A stretch of DNA of 64,000 nt from contig CM069143.1 in assembly GCA_035221665.1 (NCBI GenBank), positions 19,344,001 through 19,408,000 on the forward strand, in the 5' to 3' direction. Source of the DNA: Okamejei kenojei. Lineage: Eukaryota. This document shows, piece after piece, positions 19,901-48,132 of the stretch. The translations under genes were made by a program, and so were the position numbers. Within the stretch, counting starts at the first letter, position 1. Every line of letters starts with the position of its first letter. The notes beneath the pieces are model-generated. The model did no database searches. It had not been told where the DNA came from and saw only the letters and a list, made by a program, of their open reading frames with translations.

Positions 19901-20773
19901 AATATGGACTGTAATCCATTCCGAAAAATTCTGATAAGAGTTTGAAGATGGGAGGGGAAATGTAAGTAATGGACCATGTGAAAGTGAGTGAGCAGTGGAA
20001 ATTGCAAGCAAAATAAATAAAAATGTATAATTTTAGGTCTGAGCAGAAACACGTGGACATAATCACTAATATACCAGGGAAAAATTAAGGGGGGGAAATC
20101 TTACTTAAATAGACTGACACAAGGAATTTTGTACAAAAATGGCATGCATGTCTTGGACTGCTATGGTTTTCGATAGAAACAACTTTTATTTGGGAAAAGT
20201 AAAGTCAAAAGAGAAGCTGTTTGGTGCAAAAAGGAGGGTCACTTGGTGAAAGGTTGGAACCTTGTTTGGGTCTTGTCCAAGAACAAAGTTGTAACCTTCA
20301 ATGATAACCATTTTTGTTCTCTGCCTATCTGTCTGTCTGTCTCCTTAATATCTGATTCTCTGTCTGTCTGTCTCCTTAATATTTTATTTTTCAGGAATTT
20401 AGGTGAGAGAATAGTATGCATTTTGCAAGCAAATGTCAGCATATCTCCTCTAGCAGAAGTAAAGTGAAGTACAAAGGTCTAGAAATTAATGTTGCATTGT
20501 GTTAATTTTCTGAGTACATTTATTTACAGAGTTGAATATAAATTCAGACCATTTCTGGGTTGAATCAAGGATTTCTGGAAATTCAGCTTTATACGATGGA
20601 GTCAATTCCATCTTGCAATTTTTGAGTCAGAATCCTTCAATGGACACAACCAGGACAATTGTATTTTCTTAGTGTTCTGTCTGGGACCCTGCTCCAATGC
20701 TATTGACTTTCTTATTGAGGATTTAAACTCATTCTTCAGTGTATTTTCCCAAGCGCCACCACCATGAAGATCT

Positions 20774-20919
20774 TCTTCTTCTTCCACTGCTTTTGTGTGG
20801 CGTGCACAGCCTAAAGTTGTAGGACAACTTGTTCTATTTGATCTTCCGTTTGTGCACGTCGAGTTGATTGCATTAGTCGAAACAGGGTGGATCACGTGAA
20901 GGTTGCAAACTTCCACCCC
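20774..20919 (-). mobile_element. 146-bp SINE-like retroelement with 5' HDV-like ribozyme and (GAA)n tail
   Basis: 13-bp TSD ACCATGAAGATCT (20761-20773, 20920-20932). TCTTCTTCTTC tail. 5' 54 nt fit the HDV double pseudoknot. Confidence 0.85.
20866..20919 (-). ncRNA. HDV-like self-cleaving ribozyme (compact, minimal P4)
   Basis: GGGGUGG-AAG-UUUGCA-ACC-UUCACGU-GAU-CCACCCU-G-UUUCGA-C-UAA-UGCAAUC: 7-bp P1 with G1-U wobble, P2 UUGCA/UGCAA, P3 ACC/GAU (one mismatch), L3 UUCACGU, catalytic-C equivalent at 20876. Confidence 0.78.
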
Positions 20920-21459
20920 ACCATGAAGATCTGATCTCTGGATACCCTTCTCCTATCAACATCTCCAGGCTGTCTGTTTTATCTGACTCTCTTGGGCCTG
21001 ATTGGGTCTTAGGTGCAGAATTTGTATTTGAATGTGGTAACTAATGCTGTGCCCAAGGATACCGAGGTTTGAAATGATGGGCACACAACCAACATGGTCA
21101 TTGTTGTATTTTGCCTTGGAGTCTTCCTTCAAGCCACAGGCCTATGCTGTGATATTTCAATAATGCATTGCAAACTACCTTTGATCCATGTTAAATATTA
21201 CAGAGTATTGTTGAACATTAAATCATATTATTAGAACCTTCTTCTCGGCACCACCTCCCAGTGGCACAGAATATTAAGAATATTAACTGCTTAATTAATA
21301 TGGATTTTTTTAATCAGTTATTCTTGAAATGAATACCCTTTATTTTTTACCAGATGAACATGTTCAAATAATCTACATATTTAAGGGGGCGGAGGGGGGG
21401 GAATTTCAGCACGTATTGTAAATTAAATACTTCAGTACAACTATTTTGTAATGATTAGG

Positions 21460-23128
21460 TGGATGGTCCCCGATCCATGATGGGGTCTATCCCAGATTAT
21501 TAAGAGAGGCAAGAGAGGAGATTGTTGGGGCTTAACAGAGATATATGTATCCTCTCTAGCTCCAGTTGAGGTCCCGAAGGACTGGGGAGAAGGCAATGTT
21601 CTTTTGATTAAGAAGGGCAGCAGAGATAATTCAGAAAAGTATAGGCTGATGTGTTTTACAATGGTAGGCAAGTCATTGGAGACGATTCTGAGTGTTAGAA
21701 TTACTAAAATTTCCAAAAACATGGGCTTATGCGGGATGTCAGCATGGCTTTGTGCATTGGAAGTCATGTCTCATGCACAGCTGAGTTTTTTGAGCAGATG
21801 ACGAATGTGATTGATGAGGGTAGAGGAAGGGATGTTATGAAATTGAGGATCTATACAGCATCGAGACATGCCGGTCAGCCCACCCAGGTAGAATTTCTCT
21901 ATTGATAACATCTCACAGTTGTCGGACATGACGTTACTGAGAGATCGTTCAGTGAGGCCATATGTGTAAAGCTGAGAAATAAAAAAAGGATGTTCACCTT
22001 GTTGAGGTTGCATTACATTTGGTCAACAGGAATGAAAAGGAACACATATGCCAGGAAATTGCAGTCAGCTGCAAGACGAGTATAGTTGTCATAGTAGGGG
22101 ATTTTAACTTCCTCACTACAGGCTAGGATGGTTATTGTTCCAAGGGCTTGGATATGGTGGAATTTTCAAGTATGTGCAGTAAAGTTTCCTCAGCCAATAT
22201 GTAGAGGGTCCTACAATGGAGAGGCCAAAACATGACCACTTAGGGAGTTGGCCAGGGCAAGTGGCTGAATTGTCAGTGGGTGAGTACTGTGCGGTCAGTG
22301 ACCATAGTTCAATTACGTATAGTTATATAAGGACACGGCTAGTCCACAAGTAAAAGTTTTTAATCGGTCCAAGGCCAACCTTGATGATATTAGCCAGGCT
22401 TGCACAACCTGTTTGGAGTGGTTTGTTTGTGGGCAAAGGGATGTCCAGAAAGTGTGATATTGAGAGTTGAAGGTATGCATGTCCCTCTTGAAATGAAGGG
22501 CAAGGCAAATAGGAGTAAAAAACCTTGGATGAATTAAGAAATTGGGGCGGTGGCCAGGAAAAGGAAGGCAGCAGGGATCAGGTGAATTCTATGAGGAGTA
22601 TAGGAGATTAAGGAGCATACGTAAGAAGGGAATCAGCAGGCCAAAAAGAGGGCAACGAGGTAGCTCTAGCAGATAAAGGAAAAAGGGTAACTACAGAGAA
22701 TATGGAGCTGCAGGTGATTGCTAAGGTCCTCAAGGACCTTAGGACGTGCAGGTTTGTAAATTAAATGCCTGTAAATTGCCCGTAGTGTATAGCGCATAGA
22801 ACTAGTGTAAGGGTGATGAACTTGGCAAGATAGGAATTGATTAGGGATTGGCTGCATGGTTTTCTGCAAAGGAGATCATGTCTCATGATTGAGTTTTTCG
22901 AAGAAGTAACAAAGAAGATTGATGAGAGTAAGGCCATAGATGTTGTTGATAAGGGCATCAGCAAGGTGTTTGATAAGGTGTTCCTTATGGCTCCTTGTCT
23001 TCATGGTAAAAACAAAGGAGAAATATTCAGTGATGATCTCCTGCTGCACCCCACATAGATGACCATGCTACAGAAGGCTCTGGAAGATTAAAATGCATGG
23101 GATCCAGGGTGTGCTAGCTAACGGGATA
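21460..23128 (+). mobile_element. Old rearranged CR1 LINE fragments (EN and RT regions)
   Basis: IKKGSRD..KYR, IVGDFN-like, HGFLQRRSCL..EFFEEVTKKIDE, FDKV remnants. Confidence 0.8.
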
Positions 23129-25652: not shown

Positions 25653-27990
25653 ATTTTTTTTAATGTAAAATATTTTTATTAGAAGTAAATACATATTAAG
25701 AAGGAATAACATAAAATCAAAAAAGAAATAACATATTATTCGTCACATACATTCTTAATATTTTTAAAGTTTACAGTCGTTCTTATTTATACTTCTATAT
25801 TTTTTATTATTTTATAACAGAAAGAAAATAGTAAAGAGAAATAATAAAAATAAATAAAATAGAAGTAGAAAATCGATAAAATGAGTGGAGTATAAAGCAA
25901 GATATTCTTCATTGGAGATATATGCATGGTCTATTGTATATAGTTCATTTATTCCTTCATTCAGGCTTCAGTCAGGCCCTCGAACCGGACCTCCTTGACC
26001 CTTTAAGTATTCAATAAATGGAGACCATATTCCTCTGAATTGATCTAGCTTGCCCAAAAGGACAAGTCTTAGTCTTTCCAGATGAAGTGTCTCCGACATT
26101 TCTGTAATCCACATTTTGATTGTGGGGGATGTAGGACCTTTCCAAAATCTTAGTATTAGTTTTTTACCAATTATTAAACTATAACCAATACAAATTATTT
26201 GCTGTATTGTTAGTAGATGATCCGTTTCTATTATTCCTAATATTAATTTTGAGTCTGGAGTCAGATTTGCATTAACTACTTTCGAGATTATGTTAAAAAT
26301 TTCTATCCAAAAATTAGTACATTTTTATACATTTTGTGAATGAATGCGTTAGATTAGCTTTTAAATGCTGACATTTATCACATATAGCAGAAACATTTGA
26401 AAAAATGCTGTTTAATTTGGATATCGAAAAGTGTAATCTATGTAAAACTTTAAATTGTATCAGGGAGTGTCTGGCATTTAATGAGCAGCGGTGTATATGT
26501 TGTAAACTTTCATTCCATACTTCTACACTAATTGTCCTAATTCGTTTTCCCATGCTTGCCTATATATTTCCGAGTTTGGTAAATCATTTTCCAGTAAAAT
26601 ATTATAAATATATTATATTAATATTTCTGTATTCGGATATTTATTTAGACATTCATCTAAAATTTCTGTCTTTCTATTTCTAAAATCCTGTGTGTTTGAT
26701 TTAACATAGTCTCTAATTTGTAAATATCTAAAGTATTCTTTTGAGTGTAATCCATAATTTTGTTGTAATCCCTGAAATGAAAGGAATAAACCTTCCCTGT
26801 TGAGATCACCCATCTTATTTATTCCATAAGTTCTTCCCTTTTAAAAAACCTTTGTCCATCATTGAAGGTTTAAAAGTGATGTTATTTGCAATGGGAAGAG
26901 CCAGCGGTATACTTTCTAATGTTAATGTTTTCTTTAATTGTTTCCAAATACGTATGCCACTTTCTATTATTGGATTTCCTCTATAATTTTTTTAATGTAT
27001 TTTAGTATTAGCAAATAAAATCGAGCTAATTTCAAAAGGTGAACAGTCTTCCTTTTCCATTTTTAACCAGTTTGGTTCTTTATCTACTTCTTCCAACCAA
27101 AAATTCATATTTTTAATATTTACTGACCAATAATAAAACATAAAATTAGGCAATGCAAAACCTCCATTCATTTTTGATTTACATAGATATTTTTTATTTA
27201 TTCTATGGCTCTTATAATCCCAAATAAAGTTGGTAACTATAGAGTCCACTTTCTTAAAAAAAAATTTAGGAAGATATATCGGGATCAGTTGAAACAGGTA
27301 TAATAATTGCGGTAGAAAAATCATTTTTATCGCATTAATTCTACCTAGCATTGAAATAGGTAATGTTTTCCAATATAGGATATTCTTAAGTAGTTTATTC
27401 AATAGGGGTGGGAAATTAGATTTAAATAAAGAATCATATCTTTTTGTTACATGAATTCCAAGATATTTGATTTCTTAATTTGCTATCTTAAAAGGATATT
27501 GTTGTAATATATGTGAGTTATTTCCCATTATTGGCATAAGTTCATTTTTATTCCAATTAATTCTATATCCTGAAATCAATCCAAATTGAGTTATTATATC
27601 TAATATGTTAGGAATACTAATTTCCGGCTTTGTAATATAAAGTAATACATCATCTGCGTATAAAGAGGTTTTATTTTCAGTTTCTTTGGTTTCATACCCG
27701 TATATTTCAGGATGTAATCTGACGCGCTGTGCTAATGGTTCAATTGCCAGTGCGAACAGTAGTGGAGATAGAGGACAACCTTGTCTACAGCCACGGAATA
27801 AATTAAATTTAGTTGTTAACATTTGATTTATTAATATTCTAGCTGTTGGCTTGGTATATAGTAGCTTAACCCATGTTATAAACTTCTCTCCCAACTGAAA
27901 AGTTTCCATAACCGAAAATAAATAAGACCATTCAATCTGATCGAAAGCATTCTCTGCGTCCAATGAAATAATTGATTCTTGGCCACATTT
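25653..27990 (-). mobile_element. L1-clade LINE, RT to 3' end, 5'-truncated
   Basis: SLDAENAFD, GCRQGCPLSP, LYADD, LPISMLGRINAIKM, CDKC..H knuckle; poly-T at ~25653-25680. Confidence 0.92.
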
Positions 27991-28580
27991 AATAAATTCC
28001 ATCCTGTCCAAGCATTATGAGAGACCCAGTCAATATTAGGAAAGTTGAAATCTCCCACGAATACTACCCTATTATATTTGCAGCTCTCTGCAATCTCCCT
28101 GCTCACCTGTTCCTTGAATTCATTCTGATTATTGGGAGGCCTGGGTACAGTCCCATCAAAGTGAACATTCCCATCCTGTTTCTATGTTGTACCCATAACG
28201 CCTCAATGGGCAATCCCCCGTAAATATCGTCCCTAATCAGTTATGTCCTCCTTGATCAAAAAGGCAATGCCATCCTTTCTCTTTTATCTGCATCTCTTAT
28301 CACACCTGTAGCATCTATACCCTGGAATATTGAGCTGCCAGTCCTGCCCTTCTGTCAAATACATTTCTGTCATTGCTATAATGTCTTGGTTACACAAAGC
28401 CAATCAAAGCCCTGAAAGGGCATGATTATATAGAAGGATATACTTGTTTTTAAGAAAAATGGGCACCTCACTATAACTCCTTTCTACGAAGTTCTCCATT
28501 TCCTGGATTTTCGTCCGGCTATCCAGCTGCAACTACACTTTCCTTATGCAGTCCGTCAGGAGCTGCAGCTGGGCACGTTA
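27991..28580 (-). mobile_element. Old CR1 endonuclease-region fragment
   Basis: VVFVGDFNFPNIDW motif. Confidence 0.7.
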
Positions 28581-31261: not shown

Positions 31262-34200
31262 CATAGAAACATAGAAATTAGGTGCAGGAGTAGGCCATTC
31301 AGCCCTTCGAGCCTGCACCGCCATTCAATATGATCATGGCTGATCATCCAACTCAGTATCCCGTACCTGCCTTCTCTCCATACCCTCTGATCCCCTTAGC
31401 CACAAGGGCCACATCCAACTCACTCTTAAATATAGCCAATGAACTGGCCTCAACTACCCTCTGTGGCAGGAGTTCCAGAGACTCACCACTCTCTGTGTGA
31501 AGAAAGTCTTTCTCATCTCGGTCTTAAAGGATTTCCCCCTTATCCTTAAGCTGTGACCCTTGTCCTGGACTTCCCCAACATCGGGAACAATCTTCCTGCA
31601 TCTAGCCTGTCCAACCCCTTAAGAATGTTGTAAGTTTCTATAAGATCCCCTCAAAATCTCCTAAATTCAGAGAGTATAAACCGAGTCTATCCAGTCTTTC
31701 TTCATAAGACAGTCCTGACATCCCAGGAATCAGTCTGGAGAACCTTCTCTGCACTCCCTCTATGGCAATAATGTCCTTCCTCAGATTTGGAGACCAAAAC
31801 TGCACGCAATACTCCAGGTGTGGTCTCACCAAGACCCTGTACAACTGAAGTAGAACCTCCCTGCTCCTGTACTCAAATCCTTTGCTATGAAAGCTAACAT
31901 ACCATTCGCTTTTTTCACTGCCTGCTGAACCTGCATGCCTACTTTCAATGACTGGTGTACCATGACACCCAGGTCTCGCTGCATCTCCCCTTTTCCCAAT
32001 CGGCCACCATTTAAAATAATAGTCCGCTTTCCTGTTTTTGCCACCAAAGTGGATAACCTCACATTTATCCACATTATACTGCATCTGCCAAACATTTGCC
32101 CACTCACCCAGCCTATCCAAGTCACCCTGCAGTCTCCTAGCATCCTCCTCCTCACAGCGAACACTGCCCCCCAGCTTAGTGTCATCCGCAAACTTGGAGA
32201 TATTGCCTTCAATTCCCTCATCCAGATCATTAATATATATTGTAAATAGCTGGGGTCCCAGCACTGAGCCCTGCGGTACCCCACTAGTTACTGCCTGCCA
32301 TTGTGAAAAGGACCCGTTTACTCCTACTCTTTGCTTCCTGTTTGCCAGCCAGTTCTCTATCCACATCAATACTGAACCCCTAATACCGTATGCTTTAAGT
32401 TTGTATACTAATCTCTTATGTGGGACCTTTGTCGAAAGCCTTCTGGAAGTCCAGATATACCACATCCACTGGTTCTCCCTTATCCACGCTACTAGTTACA
32501 TCCTCGAAAAAATTCCACAAGATTCGTCAGACATGATTTACCTTTTGTAAATCCATGCTGACTTTGTCCAATGATTTCACCACTTTCCAAATGTGCTGCT
32601 ATCCCATCTTTAATACTGACTCTAGCAGTTTCCCCACTACCGATGTTAGACTAACTGGTCTGTAATTGCCCGTTTTCTCTCTCCCTCCCTCTTAAAAAGA
32701 GGGGGTGTACATTTGCTACCCGCCAATCCCTCAGGAACTACTCCAGAATCTAAAGAGTTTTGAAAGATTATCACTAATGCATCCACTATTCCTGAGCTAC
32801 TTCCTTAAGTACTCTGGGATGCAGCCTATCTGGCCCTGGGGATTTATCGGCCTTTAATCTATTCAATTTACCCAACACCACTTCCCGACTGACCTGGATT
32901 TCACTCAATTCCTCCTTTGACCCACAGTCCCCTGCTATTTCAGGCAGATTATTTATGTCTTCCTTAGTGAAGACGGAAACCAAAGTAGTTTATTCAATTG
33001 GGTCCGCCATATCCTTGTTCCCAAATGATCAACTCACCTGTTTTCTGACTGCAAGGACCTACATTTGTTTTTAACTAACCTCTTTCTCTTCACATATCTA
33101 TAAAAACTTTTGCAGTCAGTTTTTATGTTCCCTGCCAGTTTTCTTTCATAATCTATTTTTCCTTTCCTAAATTAAGCCTTTGTCCTCCTCTGCTGGTCTC
33201 TGAATTTCTCCCAGTCCTCTGGTATGCTGCTTTTTCTGGCTACTTTGTACGCATCATCCTTTGCTTTGATACTATCCCTGATTTCCCTTGTTTATCCACG
33301 GATGCACTACCTTCCCCGATTTATTCTTTTGCCAAACTGGGATGAACAATTTTTGTAGTTCATCCATGCAGTCCTTTAAATGTCTTCCATTGTATATCCA
33401 CCGTCAACCCTTTTAGAATTAATTGCCAAGTCAATCTTGGCCAATTCACGTCTCATACCCTCAAAGTTACCTTTCTTTAAGTTCAGAACCATTGTTTCTG
33501 AATTAACAATGTCACTCTCCATCCTAATGAAGAACTCAACCATATTATGGTCACTCTTGCCCAAGGGGGCACGTACAACAAACGGCTAATTACCCCTTCC
33601 TCATTACTCAAAACCCAGTCTAAAAATAGCCTGCTCTCTCGTTGGTTCCTCTACATGTTGATTTAGATAACTATCCCGCATACATTCCAAAAATCCTCTT
33701 CCTCAGCACCCCTGCAATTTGATTAACCCAATCTATATGTAGATTGAAGTCACCCATTATAACTGTTTTGCCTTTGTCGCACGCATTTCTAATTTCCCGT
33801 TTGATACCATCCCCAACTTCTCTGCTACTGTTAGGTGGCCTGTACACAACACCCACCAGCGTTTTCTGCCCCTTAGTGTTTTGTAGCTCTACCCATACCG
33901 ATTCCACATCCTCCAAGCTAATGTCCTTTCCTTTCCATTGCTTTAATCTCCTCTCTAACCAGCAACGCTACCCCACCTCCTTTTCCTTTCTCTCTATCCC
34001 TCCTGAATATTGAATATCCCTGGATGTTCAGCTCCCAGCCTACGTCACCCTGGAGCCATGTCTCCGTGATTCCCAACTATATCATAATCATTAATATCTA
34101 TCTGCACGTTCAACTCGTCCACCTTATTACGAATACTCCTTGCATTGAGACACAAAGCCTTCAGGCTTGTCTTTACAACGCATTTACCCCTTATACAATT

Positions 34201-44423: not shown

Positions 44424-47303
44424 ACTCCACCGCCCTCCAGCAGCCCGCAGCCGTCGCCTCACCTGCAGACTGGACTCTACAGTGGGCCTGAAGCCTCCAC
44501 ATTGCTAACTCCTCCCACCACTCTGTCTTTAACGGAACTGGGTCCTAGTGCCCGTCTCCCCAGCCCCAGTAACCTTAGTGGCTATTCCACTGGGTCTTCC
44601 CCACCCCCCCCCACCATGTAACCCCTGCTCTTCCTCACCCACACCACAGCCCCCATACTACCCCACCCCCTGACCACCCTCCACCCCCTCACCACACAAC
44701 GCTCCGTCCTCAGTTCACTCACCTGCCTTCCTCCGGCCACAACCCCGATCCTTGCCGCATGTTCATCATCCCCCCCGGACCTCCCCCTCTCCGACACCGA
44801 ACGGTCTGTCCTCAGCAGAGGTCTTACCTTTGTCCCCCTCCATCCCCACCTCAATGATTTCCGCGCACAGCACGACTTGGAGCTCTTCTACCGTCGCCTC
44901 CGCCTCACAGCGTTCTTCCACGGGAAGAAGCCCACGCTCCCCGCTGATGATCCCTTTTCCTGTCTCCCACGTACCCCCTCCATTTGGACCCCCCCTCGTA
45001 GCCTTCCGGCTCTAGAACTATTTATCCAGAACTGCCGTCGGGACATCAACTGCCTCGACTTCTCCACTCCCCTGTCTCACTCCAATCTCTCCAGCCCCGA
45101 ACGTACTGCCATCGACTCACTCCGTAACAACCCAGACTGGGTTATCAAACCCGCCGACAAGGGAGGTGCCGTGGTAGTCTGGCGCGTCGATCTCTACAAA
45201 GTGGAGGCTGCGCGCCAACTCTCGGACACCTCCTCCTATTTACCCCTGGACCATGACCCCACTGACGAACACCAGGCCACCATCTCGAGCACCATAACCG
45301 ACTTCATCAGCTCCGGTACCCTACCCCCCCCCAGCCTCCGACCTCATCGTTTCCCAGCCCCGCACGGCCCGATTTTACCTTCTCCCCAAAATCCACAAAC
45401 CCGACTGCCCTGGCAGACCCATTGTCTCTGCCTGTTCATGCCTCACTGAACACATTTCTACATACCTTGACGCCATCCTATCCCCCTTTGTTAAATCCCT
45501 CCCCACCTATGTTCAAGACACCTCAGAAACTCTCCGTCGGCTCCGTGCATTCCATTCTCCAGGCTCCCATCCTCTCATCTTTACCATGGACGTCCAGTCA
45601 CTCTACACCTCCATCCCCCACCAGGACGGTCTCAAAGCCCTCTGGTTCTTCCTCAACCAGAGGAGCAGCCCATACCTCTCCACTGACACCCTCCTCCGCC
45701 TAGCGGAGTTGGTCCTTACCCTCAATAACTTCTCTTTTGATTCCTCCCATTTCCTTCAAACACAAGGCGTAGCTATGGGCACACGCATGGGCCCCAGCTA
45801 CGCTTGCCTCTTTGTTGGGTACGTCGAACAATCCTTGTTCTCCGCGTACCAGGGTCCCATCCTCGACCTCTACCTCCGTTACATCGGCGACTGCTTTGGT
45901 GTCGCCTCCTACACCCACCAACTTCATTCATTTCACCACCAACTTCCATCCGGCACTCAAATACACTTGGACCATTTCCGACATTTCCCTACCATTCCTT
46001 GACCTCACCATCTCTATTGCAGGTGATACACTCCTGACCGACATCCACTACAAACCAACTGACTCCCACAGCTACCTGGACTACTCTTCCTCCCACCCTG
46101 CTTCCTGTAAGGACTCCATCCCCTATTCCCAATTCCTCCGTCTACGCCACATCTGCTCCCAGGATGAGGTGTTCCACACCAGGTCATCACAAATGGCCTC
46201 ATTCTTCAGAGAACGGGGATTCCCCTCCCCACTATTGATGAGGCTCGCACCAGGGTCTCCTCCATACCCCGCAACACTGCCCTCTCTCCCCATTCCCCCA
46301 CTCGCAAACAGGGCAGTGTCCCCCTGGTCCTCACCTTTCACCCCATCAGCCGGCAAATACAACACATAGTCCTCCGCCAGTTTCGCCACCTCCAACGTGA
46401 CCCTTCCACCCGCCACATCTTCCCATCTCCCCCCCTGTCTGCCTTCCGCAAAGACCGCTCCCTCCGCAACTCCCTTGTCAATTCTTCCCTCCCCTCCCGC
46501 TCTACCCCTTCCTCGGGCACTTTCCCTTGCAACCGCAAGAAATTCAACACTTGTCCCTTCACCTCCCCCCTCCACTCCTTTCAGGGACCCAAGCAGTCCT
46601 TCCAGGTCCGACAGAGGTTCACCTGCACCTCCTCCAACCTCCAACCTCATCTACTGCATCCGCTGCTCCAGATGCCAGATGATCTATATCGGTGGGACCA
46701 AGCGGAGGCTTGGCGATCGTTTCGCCGAACACCTCCGCTTGGTCCGCAAAAACCAACCAGACCTCCCGGTGGCTCAGCACTTCAACTCCCCCTCCCATTC
46801 CGTATCCGATCTCTCGGTCCTGGGCCTCCTCCACGGCCAGAGTGAGCAACACCACAAGTTGGAGGAACAGCACCTCATCTTCCGCTTGGGGAGTCTGCAT
46901 CTTTTGGGCTTGAACATTGAATTTTCTCAATTCTGTTAACCCTTGCTGTCTCCTCCCCTTCCCACCTCTCCCTCAGCCCTCGGGCCCTGGCATTCCCTCT
47001 ATCTCTATCTCCTTCCCCCACCGTTGTCGCACTAGCTTCTTACTTTCACACCACAAACAGCTTACAATGGCTTGTTCCCTTTATCATCGATACTTTTTTG
47101 CATATCTTTCATTCATTCTTCTTTATCTCTCCACATCACCACCTATATCTCTCGTTTCCCTGATCCCTGACCAGTCTGAAGAAGGGTCTCGACCCGAAAC
47201 GTCGCCTATCTCCTTCGCTCCTTAGATGCTGCTGCACCCGCTGAGTTTCTCCAGCTTTTTGTGTAACCCTCAATTCTCCAGCATCTGCAGTTCCTTCTTT
47301 AAC
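44424..47303 (+). mobile_element. Penelope-like retroelement (RT + GIY-YIG, Neptune-like), near full-length, frameshifted
   Basis: IKPADKGG, LPKIHK..GRPI, DVQSLYTSIP, GVAMGTRMGPSYA, RYIGD, PFLD, YKPTD, Cys linker, NLIYCIRC..YIG..RF.EH. 11-bp TSD ACAGCCTCAAG (44413-44423, 47304-47314). Confidence 0.95.
47176..47203 (+). ncRNA. Minimal hammerhead ribozyme core in the Penelope pLTR
   Basis: CUGAAGA-A-GGGU(CUCG)ACCC-GAAA-CG-UC: conserved core, 4-5 bp stem II, palindromic ACGU stem III, GUC cleavage triplet. Confidence 0.7.
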
Positions 47304-48132
47304 ACAGCCTCAAGTCTTCTTGGGTATGACGCTACAAGCTTGGCACACCTGTATTTGGGTAATTTCTCCCATTCTTCTCTGCAGATCCTCTCAAGCTGTC
47401 AGGTTGGATGGGGAGCGTCGATGCACAACTATTTTCATTTTCACAAAATGTGGAAAAAAGTGAAGGAATCTGAATACTTTCTGAATGCACTGTAGGTCCT
47501 GCTGATAAGCACCATCCTACCTTTTGTCCCTCAACCTTATTTTGTGGTCCGCCTGAGCCAGGACTAAGGGTTCCAATGGACCCTGGACATGATTAATCAG
47601 GTGATTTCTTCACTCCATTTTTTCCACCTGCACTCATGGCTGATGAAACAAATAGATACGCCTTACAATTCTTTGACAATCCTGTTATTGTAGATGACCT
47701 ACCACCCTCATCAAGATTTAGAAAATGGCATGATATTTCTGAGGAAGAAATGAAAGTGTATGCGGCCCTTGAAATCACCAAGGGCTTATGTAGTAAAAAT
47801 CACCTCCATGATTACTGGGATAGATTACAGGGGTTCAGTCAAGTGATGAGTCGGGACCGATACATACTTTTGCATTCCTTCCTGCATTTCAATGACAATA
47901 CCAATCAAAAGGTGACGGTTCATGTCGATTGTGACCCACTGTACAAAATATGTCTGGTGAAAGTACGTAATTTAATTTCTTTCAGCCACACCAAGAAATA
48001 TTATATGAAATAATGAAAGGATTCAAAGGCCACTTGAGTTTCAAGCAATATATCCCCCAATAAGCCTTGTAAATGGGGTATAAAAATGTGGGTTTTGTGT
48101 ATTCGGTGAATAGATCTAATCTACGATAGAAT

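Follow-up and report, generated by a model that had tools for sequence, protein, structure and literature searches.

What is the 146-bp insertion on the minus strand of the window (the whole 64,000-nucleotide stretch of Okamejei kenojei DNA analysed here), and how did so short an element, with a ribozyme-like head, arise and spread? An initial annotation had described it as a SINE-like retroelement between 13-bp target-site duplications. The insert has the sequence and coordinates given there (Table 1), and the 8-bp stem (20801-20808 with 20851-20858) and the 7-bp hairpin (20814-20820 with 20824-20830) are present; the duplication is 13 bp without ambiguous bases and 15 bp (20759-20773 and 20918-20932) once two ambiguous bases are counted. 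Its remark that no tRNA, 7SL or 5S head is visible was borne out, as there is no tRNA gene at 20000-22000 and no such Rfam match, and the head is the own head of a LINE. The element thus lacks the tRNA, 7SL, 5S or snRNA head with a Pol III promoter by which SINEs are strictly defined. Elsewhere in the window lie fragments of other LINE endonuclease and reverse transcriptase (RT) genes and a DDE_Tnp_1_7 transposase (1262-1639, 27478-28014, 31641-32495, 45298-45999 and 47597-48010); no host-gene domain was found among the 42 open reading frames (ORFs) of at least 120 aa.

Table 1 Parts of the element and its flanking duplications (nt, nucleotide of the element counted from G1).
Feature	Positions	Strand	Remarks
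Whole element, subfamily A copy	20774..20919	minus	146 bp including tail
Upstream target-site duplication	20920..20932	minus	13 bp; 15 bp if 20918-20919 (shared with G1-G2) are included
Downstream target-site duplication	20761..20773	minus	15 bp with 20759-20760
Predicted P4-less HDV-like ribozyme	20866..20919	minus	nt 1-54; head identical in the full-length LINE
P1 5' strand	20913..20919	minus	G1 at 20919
P2 5' strand	20904..20910	minus	private mismatch nt 11 = 20909
P3 - L3 - P3	20891..20903	minus	private mismatch nt 28 = 20892
P1 3' strand	20884..20890	minus	G1-U36 wobble
J1/4 (GU) and 5-nt P4 remnant	20877..20883	minus	22-29 nt P4 hairpin here in relatives
J4/2 and P2 3' strand	20866..20876	minus	predicted catalytic C44 at 20876; C-N-N-A kept in four families
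LINE 5'-UTR-derived part, nt 55-78	20842..20865	minus	contains end-duplex 5' arm (20851-20858); inverted heads end at nt 71-82
Short middle	20828..20841	minus	non-colinear with LINE; probably a local duplication
LINE 3'-end-derived part	20792..20827	minus	last ORF codons and stop (20811-20813), 3' UTR with end-duplex 3' arm (20801-20808)
(GAA)n tail	20774..20794	minus	partly decayed

The element joins the two ends of a LINE

Rare short variants of the element have a different middle, which reads as the final codons of an ORF. A search pattern on these variants (the 3' part of subfamily C) recovered LINE 3' pieces at 3 of 30 loci, ending in a Cys/His motif, a stop codon, a 20-nt 3' UTR and the same tail; two exclusion patterns placed behind the head returned short variants only and no LINE directly. 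Walking upstream from the 3' pieces led to the full LINE, which runs for about 3.04 kb from G1 to the same tail in one copy (L256, with a 9-bp duplication containing one mismatch), begins at nt 9-10 in two others (L257 and L258), and has the head together with an internal deletion in a further one (L264). These copies supply the long LINE sharing both ends for which the initial annotation had proposed a search. From head to tail the element comprises nt 1-78 of the LINE, a short middle that is rearranged, and the final 45 nt of the LINE. All LINE copies seen are broken, and they are about 85-93% identical to one another.

Pieces of the partner's ORF match RVT_1 (E 9e-29). Endonuclease and RT domains are present in P0001, its closest homologue that is intact (75%), and neither P0001 nor four pieces of L257 showed an RNase H domain. 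Most of the best homologues of the ORF consist of one ORF of about 1,000 aa, on contigs about 3.2 kb long, and the profile given for Vingi elements in PMC13708176 is a single ORF of about 1,000 aa with an APE endonuclease and RT, a length of about 3.1 kb and no RNase H. Every family that has both a head and a usable RT is placed in a single 100/100 clade of an RT tree that contains no named Vingi, Ingi or RTE element as reference and leaves out cpB_L506, where the RT is a neighbouring unrelated one, as well as two RT pieces of the window; L296 belongs to the same clade, yet no head was found there. On these sequence grounds the partner is classed as a Vingi-type LINE of 3 kb with a single ORF. 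Contigs of an archaeal genome bin (L374-L376) encode an RT of this LINE type at about 40% identity, probably through eukaryotic contamination.

The derivation of the element from this LINE is virtually certain. It has the 5' end of the autonomous LINE, shares the LINE's 3' end and tail while lacking the ORF, and has been amplified as a unit with target duplications, which are the marks of a SIDE. A SINE that acquired its ribozyme head independently and has only the tail in common with the LINE is hardly conceivable; the middle of the element (nt 79-92) is not colinear with the LINE, which speaks for such an origin, but the full-length LINE has the same nt 1-78 at its own 5' end, L256, L257 and L258 refute this reading, and subfamilies C and D retain longer pieces of the LINE 5' UTR. 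Filing the element as a ribozyme-headed, internally deleted Vingi-type LINE is secure, and it is a bipartite non-autonomous LINE of the SIDE/NARTc kind, a class already known. The suggestion of a SINE mobilised by an RTE/Vingi-type LINE thus holds for the Vingi-type partner with both ends in common, and fails for RTE and for a SINE with an independent head.

Copy number, 5' ends and subfamilies

The 41-nt core of the head has 2,429 exact matches in the element's own 2.76-Gb genome and a 24-nt tail pattern has 4,512, with none for either reversed control, so that the family is multi-copy, as the initial annotation had supposed. It numbers at least 4,512 copies, and we infer roughly 7,000 or more because, among the first 30 tail matches, only 10 also have the exact head core. 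When the same genome was searched at the DNA level, 1,153 candidates came up, of which the 40 scored are each 93-100% identical. In 21 sequencing runs, all of them made up of contigs, the element with an identical 5' boundary was also found in runs of other organisms.

The 5' ends were compared in two sets of 30 copies, selected on the head core and on the tail and overlapping by 10 insertions. In agreement with the predicted boundary at G1, the 5' strand of P1 forms the start of 30/30 core-selected and 29/30 tail-selected copies, and a duplication of 8-15 bp ends within 3 nt of G1 in 27/30 and 25/30, respectively. Total length across the family is 135-146 nt, copies of the main subfamily diverge from their majority by a mean of 3% (80 copies, a sample biased towards the query), and the thousands of dispersed copies trace to few masters. 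The short subfamilies come from at least three different junctions (A/B/E, C and D); mini-elements of this family were therefore born at least three times, because subfamilies C and D have other junctions. Between subfamily majorities the head differs at nt 8, 32 (U-A to U-G) and 45, all neutral to the fold.

Some single loci show further rearrangements. At L461:1465-1509, L151, G000:C4:37358022 and C12:33602019 the part of the head that lies between the P2 strands is inverted, apparently with the 7-bp repeat of P2 as the substrate for inversion. Two independent copies (L091 and L147) are interrupted by another short repeat; the insertion point is the same in both (about nt 91), and the duplication measures about 14 bp. 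One subfamily C copy was multiplied as part of a larger repeat unit that lies on C10, on C39 and on several small contigs (L176, L187-L191), and the short copies L243 and L249 sit inside copies of their own parent LINE. A small sub-lineage (L271, L275, L276 and L281) has head changes at nt 43 and 45 and keeps C44.

The head is a predicted HDV-like ribozyme without P4

In the subfamily majorities P1 (7 bp, with G1-U), P2 (7 bp) and P3 (3 bp) are each fully paired, and are followed by GU, a 5-nt loop replacing P4, C-U/G-A-A and the 3' strand of P2. Of the HDV-like fold drawn in the initial annotation, the P1/P2/P3/P1.1 topology, the G1 pair and the J4/2 cytosine are found in the family majority, while the copy in the window has two private mismatches; a P2 of 5 bp and a mismatched P3, as read there, are not the family form. 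Of 511 comparable heads the first 100 were inspected, and just 2 have the P3 mismatch (nt 28), which is therefore taken as private decay, as is that at nt 11 in P2; in this copy the predicted ribozyme may be weakened or inactive. All pairs and core bases are intact in 15/30 tail-selected copies. We also considered the P3 mismatch as the mark of a propagating sub-lineage, which its 2/100 frequency rules out, and the ATG inside P2, with a 20-codon frame, as the start of the LINE, which is rejected since the ORF starts near nt 107 and the ATG is lost in subfamily B.

A scan with Rfam, which the initial annotation had recommended, found no ribozyme in the window stretch, even with E values as high as 10, and none in L264, and the energy of a plain fold of the window copy, free of pseudoknots, is not unusual (z -0.78). 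Both results are as expected of a pseudoknot without P4. Relatives were sought through the protein. Related proteins are encoded by 78 metagenome loci, among which three further LINE families (L371 and kin, L300, and L316) have full HDV-like heads including P4 at their 5' ends; the heads of family 2 score 22-25 bits against the Rfam HDV-like models, under the cut-off. Two descriptor matches in 1.1 Mb were free of mismatches (L316 and L371), and both lie at a LINE 5' end. The strict descriptor found no head in 32 upstream regions; a looser one matched 14 times in 1.1 Mb, against 5 in shuffled sequence, with 4 matches at LINE 5' ends. A loose search pattern on P3 and L3 turned up no further family that has this P3, no relative was found in viral contigs, and none of 46 loci in genome contigs had a head at a LINE end. 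The head at L300:286-361 differs from those of the other families in its parse, in which L3 is 5 nt long and the junction is GG.

The covariation that the initial annotation had proposed to examine is present in P1 and P3, where 94% of cells are paired and 5/10 pairs have changed on both sides (7 heads, 4 families). These values were reached by 0-4 of 500 shuffles, and slid controls pair at 47-64%; P2, which MAFFT misaligned, was left out of the count and read from the descriptor parse. L3, GU and the J4/2 C are constant across families while the stems covary. The head is thus a predicted P4-less HDV-like ribozyme with stems covarying in related LINE families, and the family head probably cleaves RNA.

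Sister families have heads that resemble the CPEB3 ribozyme. The CPEB3 model RF00622 has 42 matches among 59 scored candidates of the own genome, 30 of them over the cut-off of 35 and the best at 66.8 bits. Of 20 such heads examined, 3 run into the 5' end of a LINE (L485 with ORF hits), 2 belong to short direct elements, 1 is unclear and 14 are inverted. The RT of CPEB3-like family A belongs to the same clade as that of the partner LINE. At L495:1500-1610 a tail follows a CPEB3-like head almost directly, a candidate mini-element of about 95 nt.

The two ends of the LINE are complementary

The stem noted in the initial annotation (nt 62-69 with the 3' UTR) is also present in the full LINE, where its arms lie 3 kb apart. 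Directly after the ribozyme come 25-30 bases that show complementarity to the element's own 3' end, with a sequence that differs per family, and this is clear in 4 of 6 families. Pairing between the stretch behind the ribozyme and the stretch before the tail was compared with shuffles. In 45/55-nt test spans, pairing as strong was reached by 0-1 of 500 shuffles in 4/4 copies of family 2 and by 17 and 9 of 500 in family 3, and was not significant in 3/3 single LINE copies of the own family, whose majority gave 63 and 34 of 1,000 in these first-chosen spans and 2 and 0 of 1,000 in 30/40-nt spans chosen afterwards. With 30/40-nt spans, CPEB3-like family A gave 0-3 of 200 in 9/9 pairings, and CPEB3-like families B and C were weak.

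A cross matrix of the families with 30/40-nt spans is strong on its diagonal, with cognate z of -4.7 (own family), -5.4 (family 2), -3.1 (family 3) and -4.2 (CPEB3-like family A), and -1.6 and -1.4 in the two weak families, and with every non-cognate pair at -2.3 or above; with 45/55-nt spans the cognate values are, in the same order, -1.9, -4.1, -2.5, -3.9, -1.0 and -1.3. The own family's duplex is weak and its core is a palindrome; the stem extends to 10 bp in subfamily B (z -4.3), and the 3' domain of the main subfamily A folds weakly (z -1.5). We consider it rather likely that the end duplex forms and matters, and the mini-element can be read as the ribozyme together with the duplex that closes the RNA, the ORF having been looped out.

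Heads are often inserted in reverse or alone

Compared with the full-length reference, truncated LINE copies often have the head alone, reversed, at their 5' junction. Such inverted heads were found at 6/30 loci chosen on a 3' coding stretch (one being the query), at 3/30 chosen on an internal stretch and at 3/30 when the first 30 among 147 exact matches to the 3' end were taken (two of them repeats of the 3'-coding set), with one more in the head-selected set; the same locus sets held four ordinary inversions. The 11 inverted-head insertions of the own family have their distal ends at nt 62, 71, 75 (six), 76, 79 and 82, that is, at nt 71-82 in 10/11, and the forward LINE piece begins anywhere at nt 169-2916. 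One duplication of 8-13 bp spans head and LINE piece at L192, L199, L211, L250 and L423; an enclosing duplication was sought at L207, L215, L233 and L245, and none was found. Of 30 loci matched by a pattern designed for heads that end at nt 75, 2 are inverted, and most belong to a different short subfamily. Several inverted-head junctions overlap the duplication by 1-4 nt, and microhomology may contribute to these insertions since inverted heads end in A/C-rich sequence. Two of 13 tailless heads (L104 and L111) are head-only insertions, which end at nt 68-73 and have 12- and 15-bp duplications.

The same products occur in related families. Among 37 loci of family 2 there is one clean inverted head (L372), ending at nt 108 behind the family's own arm, and one unclear case (L312). 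The 14 CPEB3-like heads were called inverted on protein hits (6), on DNA similarity to those together with the tail (3), on the tail and mutual similarity with one weak protein hit (4) or by eye (1). Duplications of 11-14 bp span both parts in 6/9 tested, the head ending 15-40 nt behind P2.

Proposed mechanism and alternatives

As a whole, we consider it likely that the element is best explained by LINE ends joined without the ORF, whose self-cut RNA is closed by the end duplex and copied by the LINE protein. A read-through transcript would be cut at G1 by the head, whereupon the 5' arm would pair with the 3' UTR and close the RNA, and the LINE protein would nick the target and prime on the GAA tail. 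With the head thus kept next to the 3' end, the single-stranded stretch behind the 5' arm would offer a second site for priming and landing, and use of this site would produce inverted heads, by a twin priming such as has been described for L1 (PMC2912911), as well as lone heads and new mini-elements; it would also explain why the parent's front end is so often inserted in reverse.

The head might alternatively act mainly as an internal promoter starting at +1, with an inherited and weak ribozyme fold, the short copies being full length merely through their shortness. A start at +1 would likewise give 5' ends at G1, the thousands of dispersed copies from few masters need a reliable source of transcripts, P4 has been cut down to 5 nt, and Pr77 of L1Tc is reported to be both a DNA-level promoter and a ribozyme (PMC4035085). 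Yet the stems covary across families where L3, GU and the J4/2 C stay fixed, all majority-level changes of the head preserve the fold, and ribozymes without P4 are reported to cleave in vitro (PMC10879173). We regard a mainly promoter role as unlikely, although the promoter and ribozyme roles are compatible with each other.

A doubtful but more serious alternative concerns the hot spot of inverted heads, which could result from protein binding to the ribozyme or 5' UTR, or from T-rich target ends annealing to the A-rich nt 68-77, the complementarity of the ends being incidental. The R2 protein binds a 5' RNA segment; in the present family a T precedes G1 in 17/30 core-selected and 14/30 tail-selected insertions, the junction overlaps of 1-4 nt fit annealing, and the own family's duplex is marginal. 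However, complementarity is restricted to cognate ends and is found in unrelated sequences of four families; A-rich stretches occur throughout the 3-kb RNA, yet 10/14 inversions in the sets that were not head-selected involve the head alone; and the clean inverted head of family 2 ends right behind the arm. That the duplex causes the priming hot spot is, in our judgement, evenly balanced.

Extended to Vingi-type RNAs in general, the closed RNA with its two ends paired becomes a more tentative proposal, to which we give somewhat less than an even chance. These RNAs would be closed panhandles, in which the ribozyme and end duplex form the unit handled by the RT, with a built-in second priming site behind the head that would yield inverted heads, lone-head insertions and mini-elements; a lone ribozyme could be dropped into an intron, and the CPEB3 ribozyme of mammals would then be a Vingi head left without its LINE, for which the CPEB3-like heads described above are a candidate origin. 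Such panhandles, if true, would answer a question posed in PMC5786205, namely why bipartite elements are made by RTE, Ingi, Vingi and R2 alone. End pairing and inverted-head products point to a step of retrotransposition apparently undescribed for APE-type LINEs. Vingi elements serve as tools for RNA-based gene insertion in which the template has both UTRs (PMC13708176), and a 5'-3' duplex with a hot spot of inverted 5' ends would bear on the template design and insertion fidelity of these tools.

Comparison with known systems

Elements that combine a ribozyme with a LINE 3' end are a known class; a P4-less HDV-like head in thousands of copies of an animal genome is apparently new, as are the end duplex and the inverted-head hot spot, the parts that a specialist would not expect. 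A literature search found no paper on a Vingi ribozyme, on end pairing or inversions in Vingi, or on a retrotransposon origin of CPEB3; Kojima 2011 (on Vingi), Ruminski 2011, Repbase entries and patents may already note Vingi ribozymes.

The closest likeness is with NARTc and RIME, derived from L1Tc and ingi in trypanosomes, a sister clade, which are described as short non-autonomous copies of the two ends of a LINE that begin with an HDV-like ribozyme (PMC4035085, PMC5786205); in contrast, the present family resides in a genome of vertebrate size, its partner has no RNase H, its head of 54 nt has no P4 and it totals 135-146 nt. The R2 SIDEs of Drosophila likewise combine a ribozyme with the 3' end of the parent, do not depend on Pol III and are reported to be born by template jump or recombination (PMC3414825); R2, however, is site-specific with an RLE endonuclease, whereas the insertions described here are dispersed, with 8-15 bp duplications, thousands of copies and several independent births. 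The non-autonomous derivatives of Vingi-1_EE and SINE2-1_ACar, as given in PMC5786205, indicate that the Vingi clade makes bipartite elements by internal deletion. The nested double pseudoknot without P4 is shared with the minimal HDV-like or theta ribozymes, which PMC10879173 reports nearly only from gut phages, and which here would head a retrotransposon in thousands of copies. The L3 and J1/4 of the RF00622 consensus of the mammalian CPEB3 ribozyme are the same here, although the head in the window does not reach that model and CPEB3 is a single intronic copy with P4. Finally, the twin priming of L1 similarly leaves an inverted 5' segment within one target duplication (PMC2912911), but in the present family the inverted piece is mostly the same head of 60-80 nt, whose distal end is fixed and which adjoins a 3' piece from up to 2.8 kb away.
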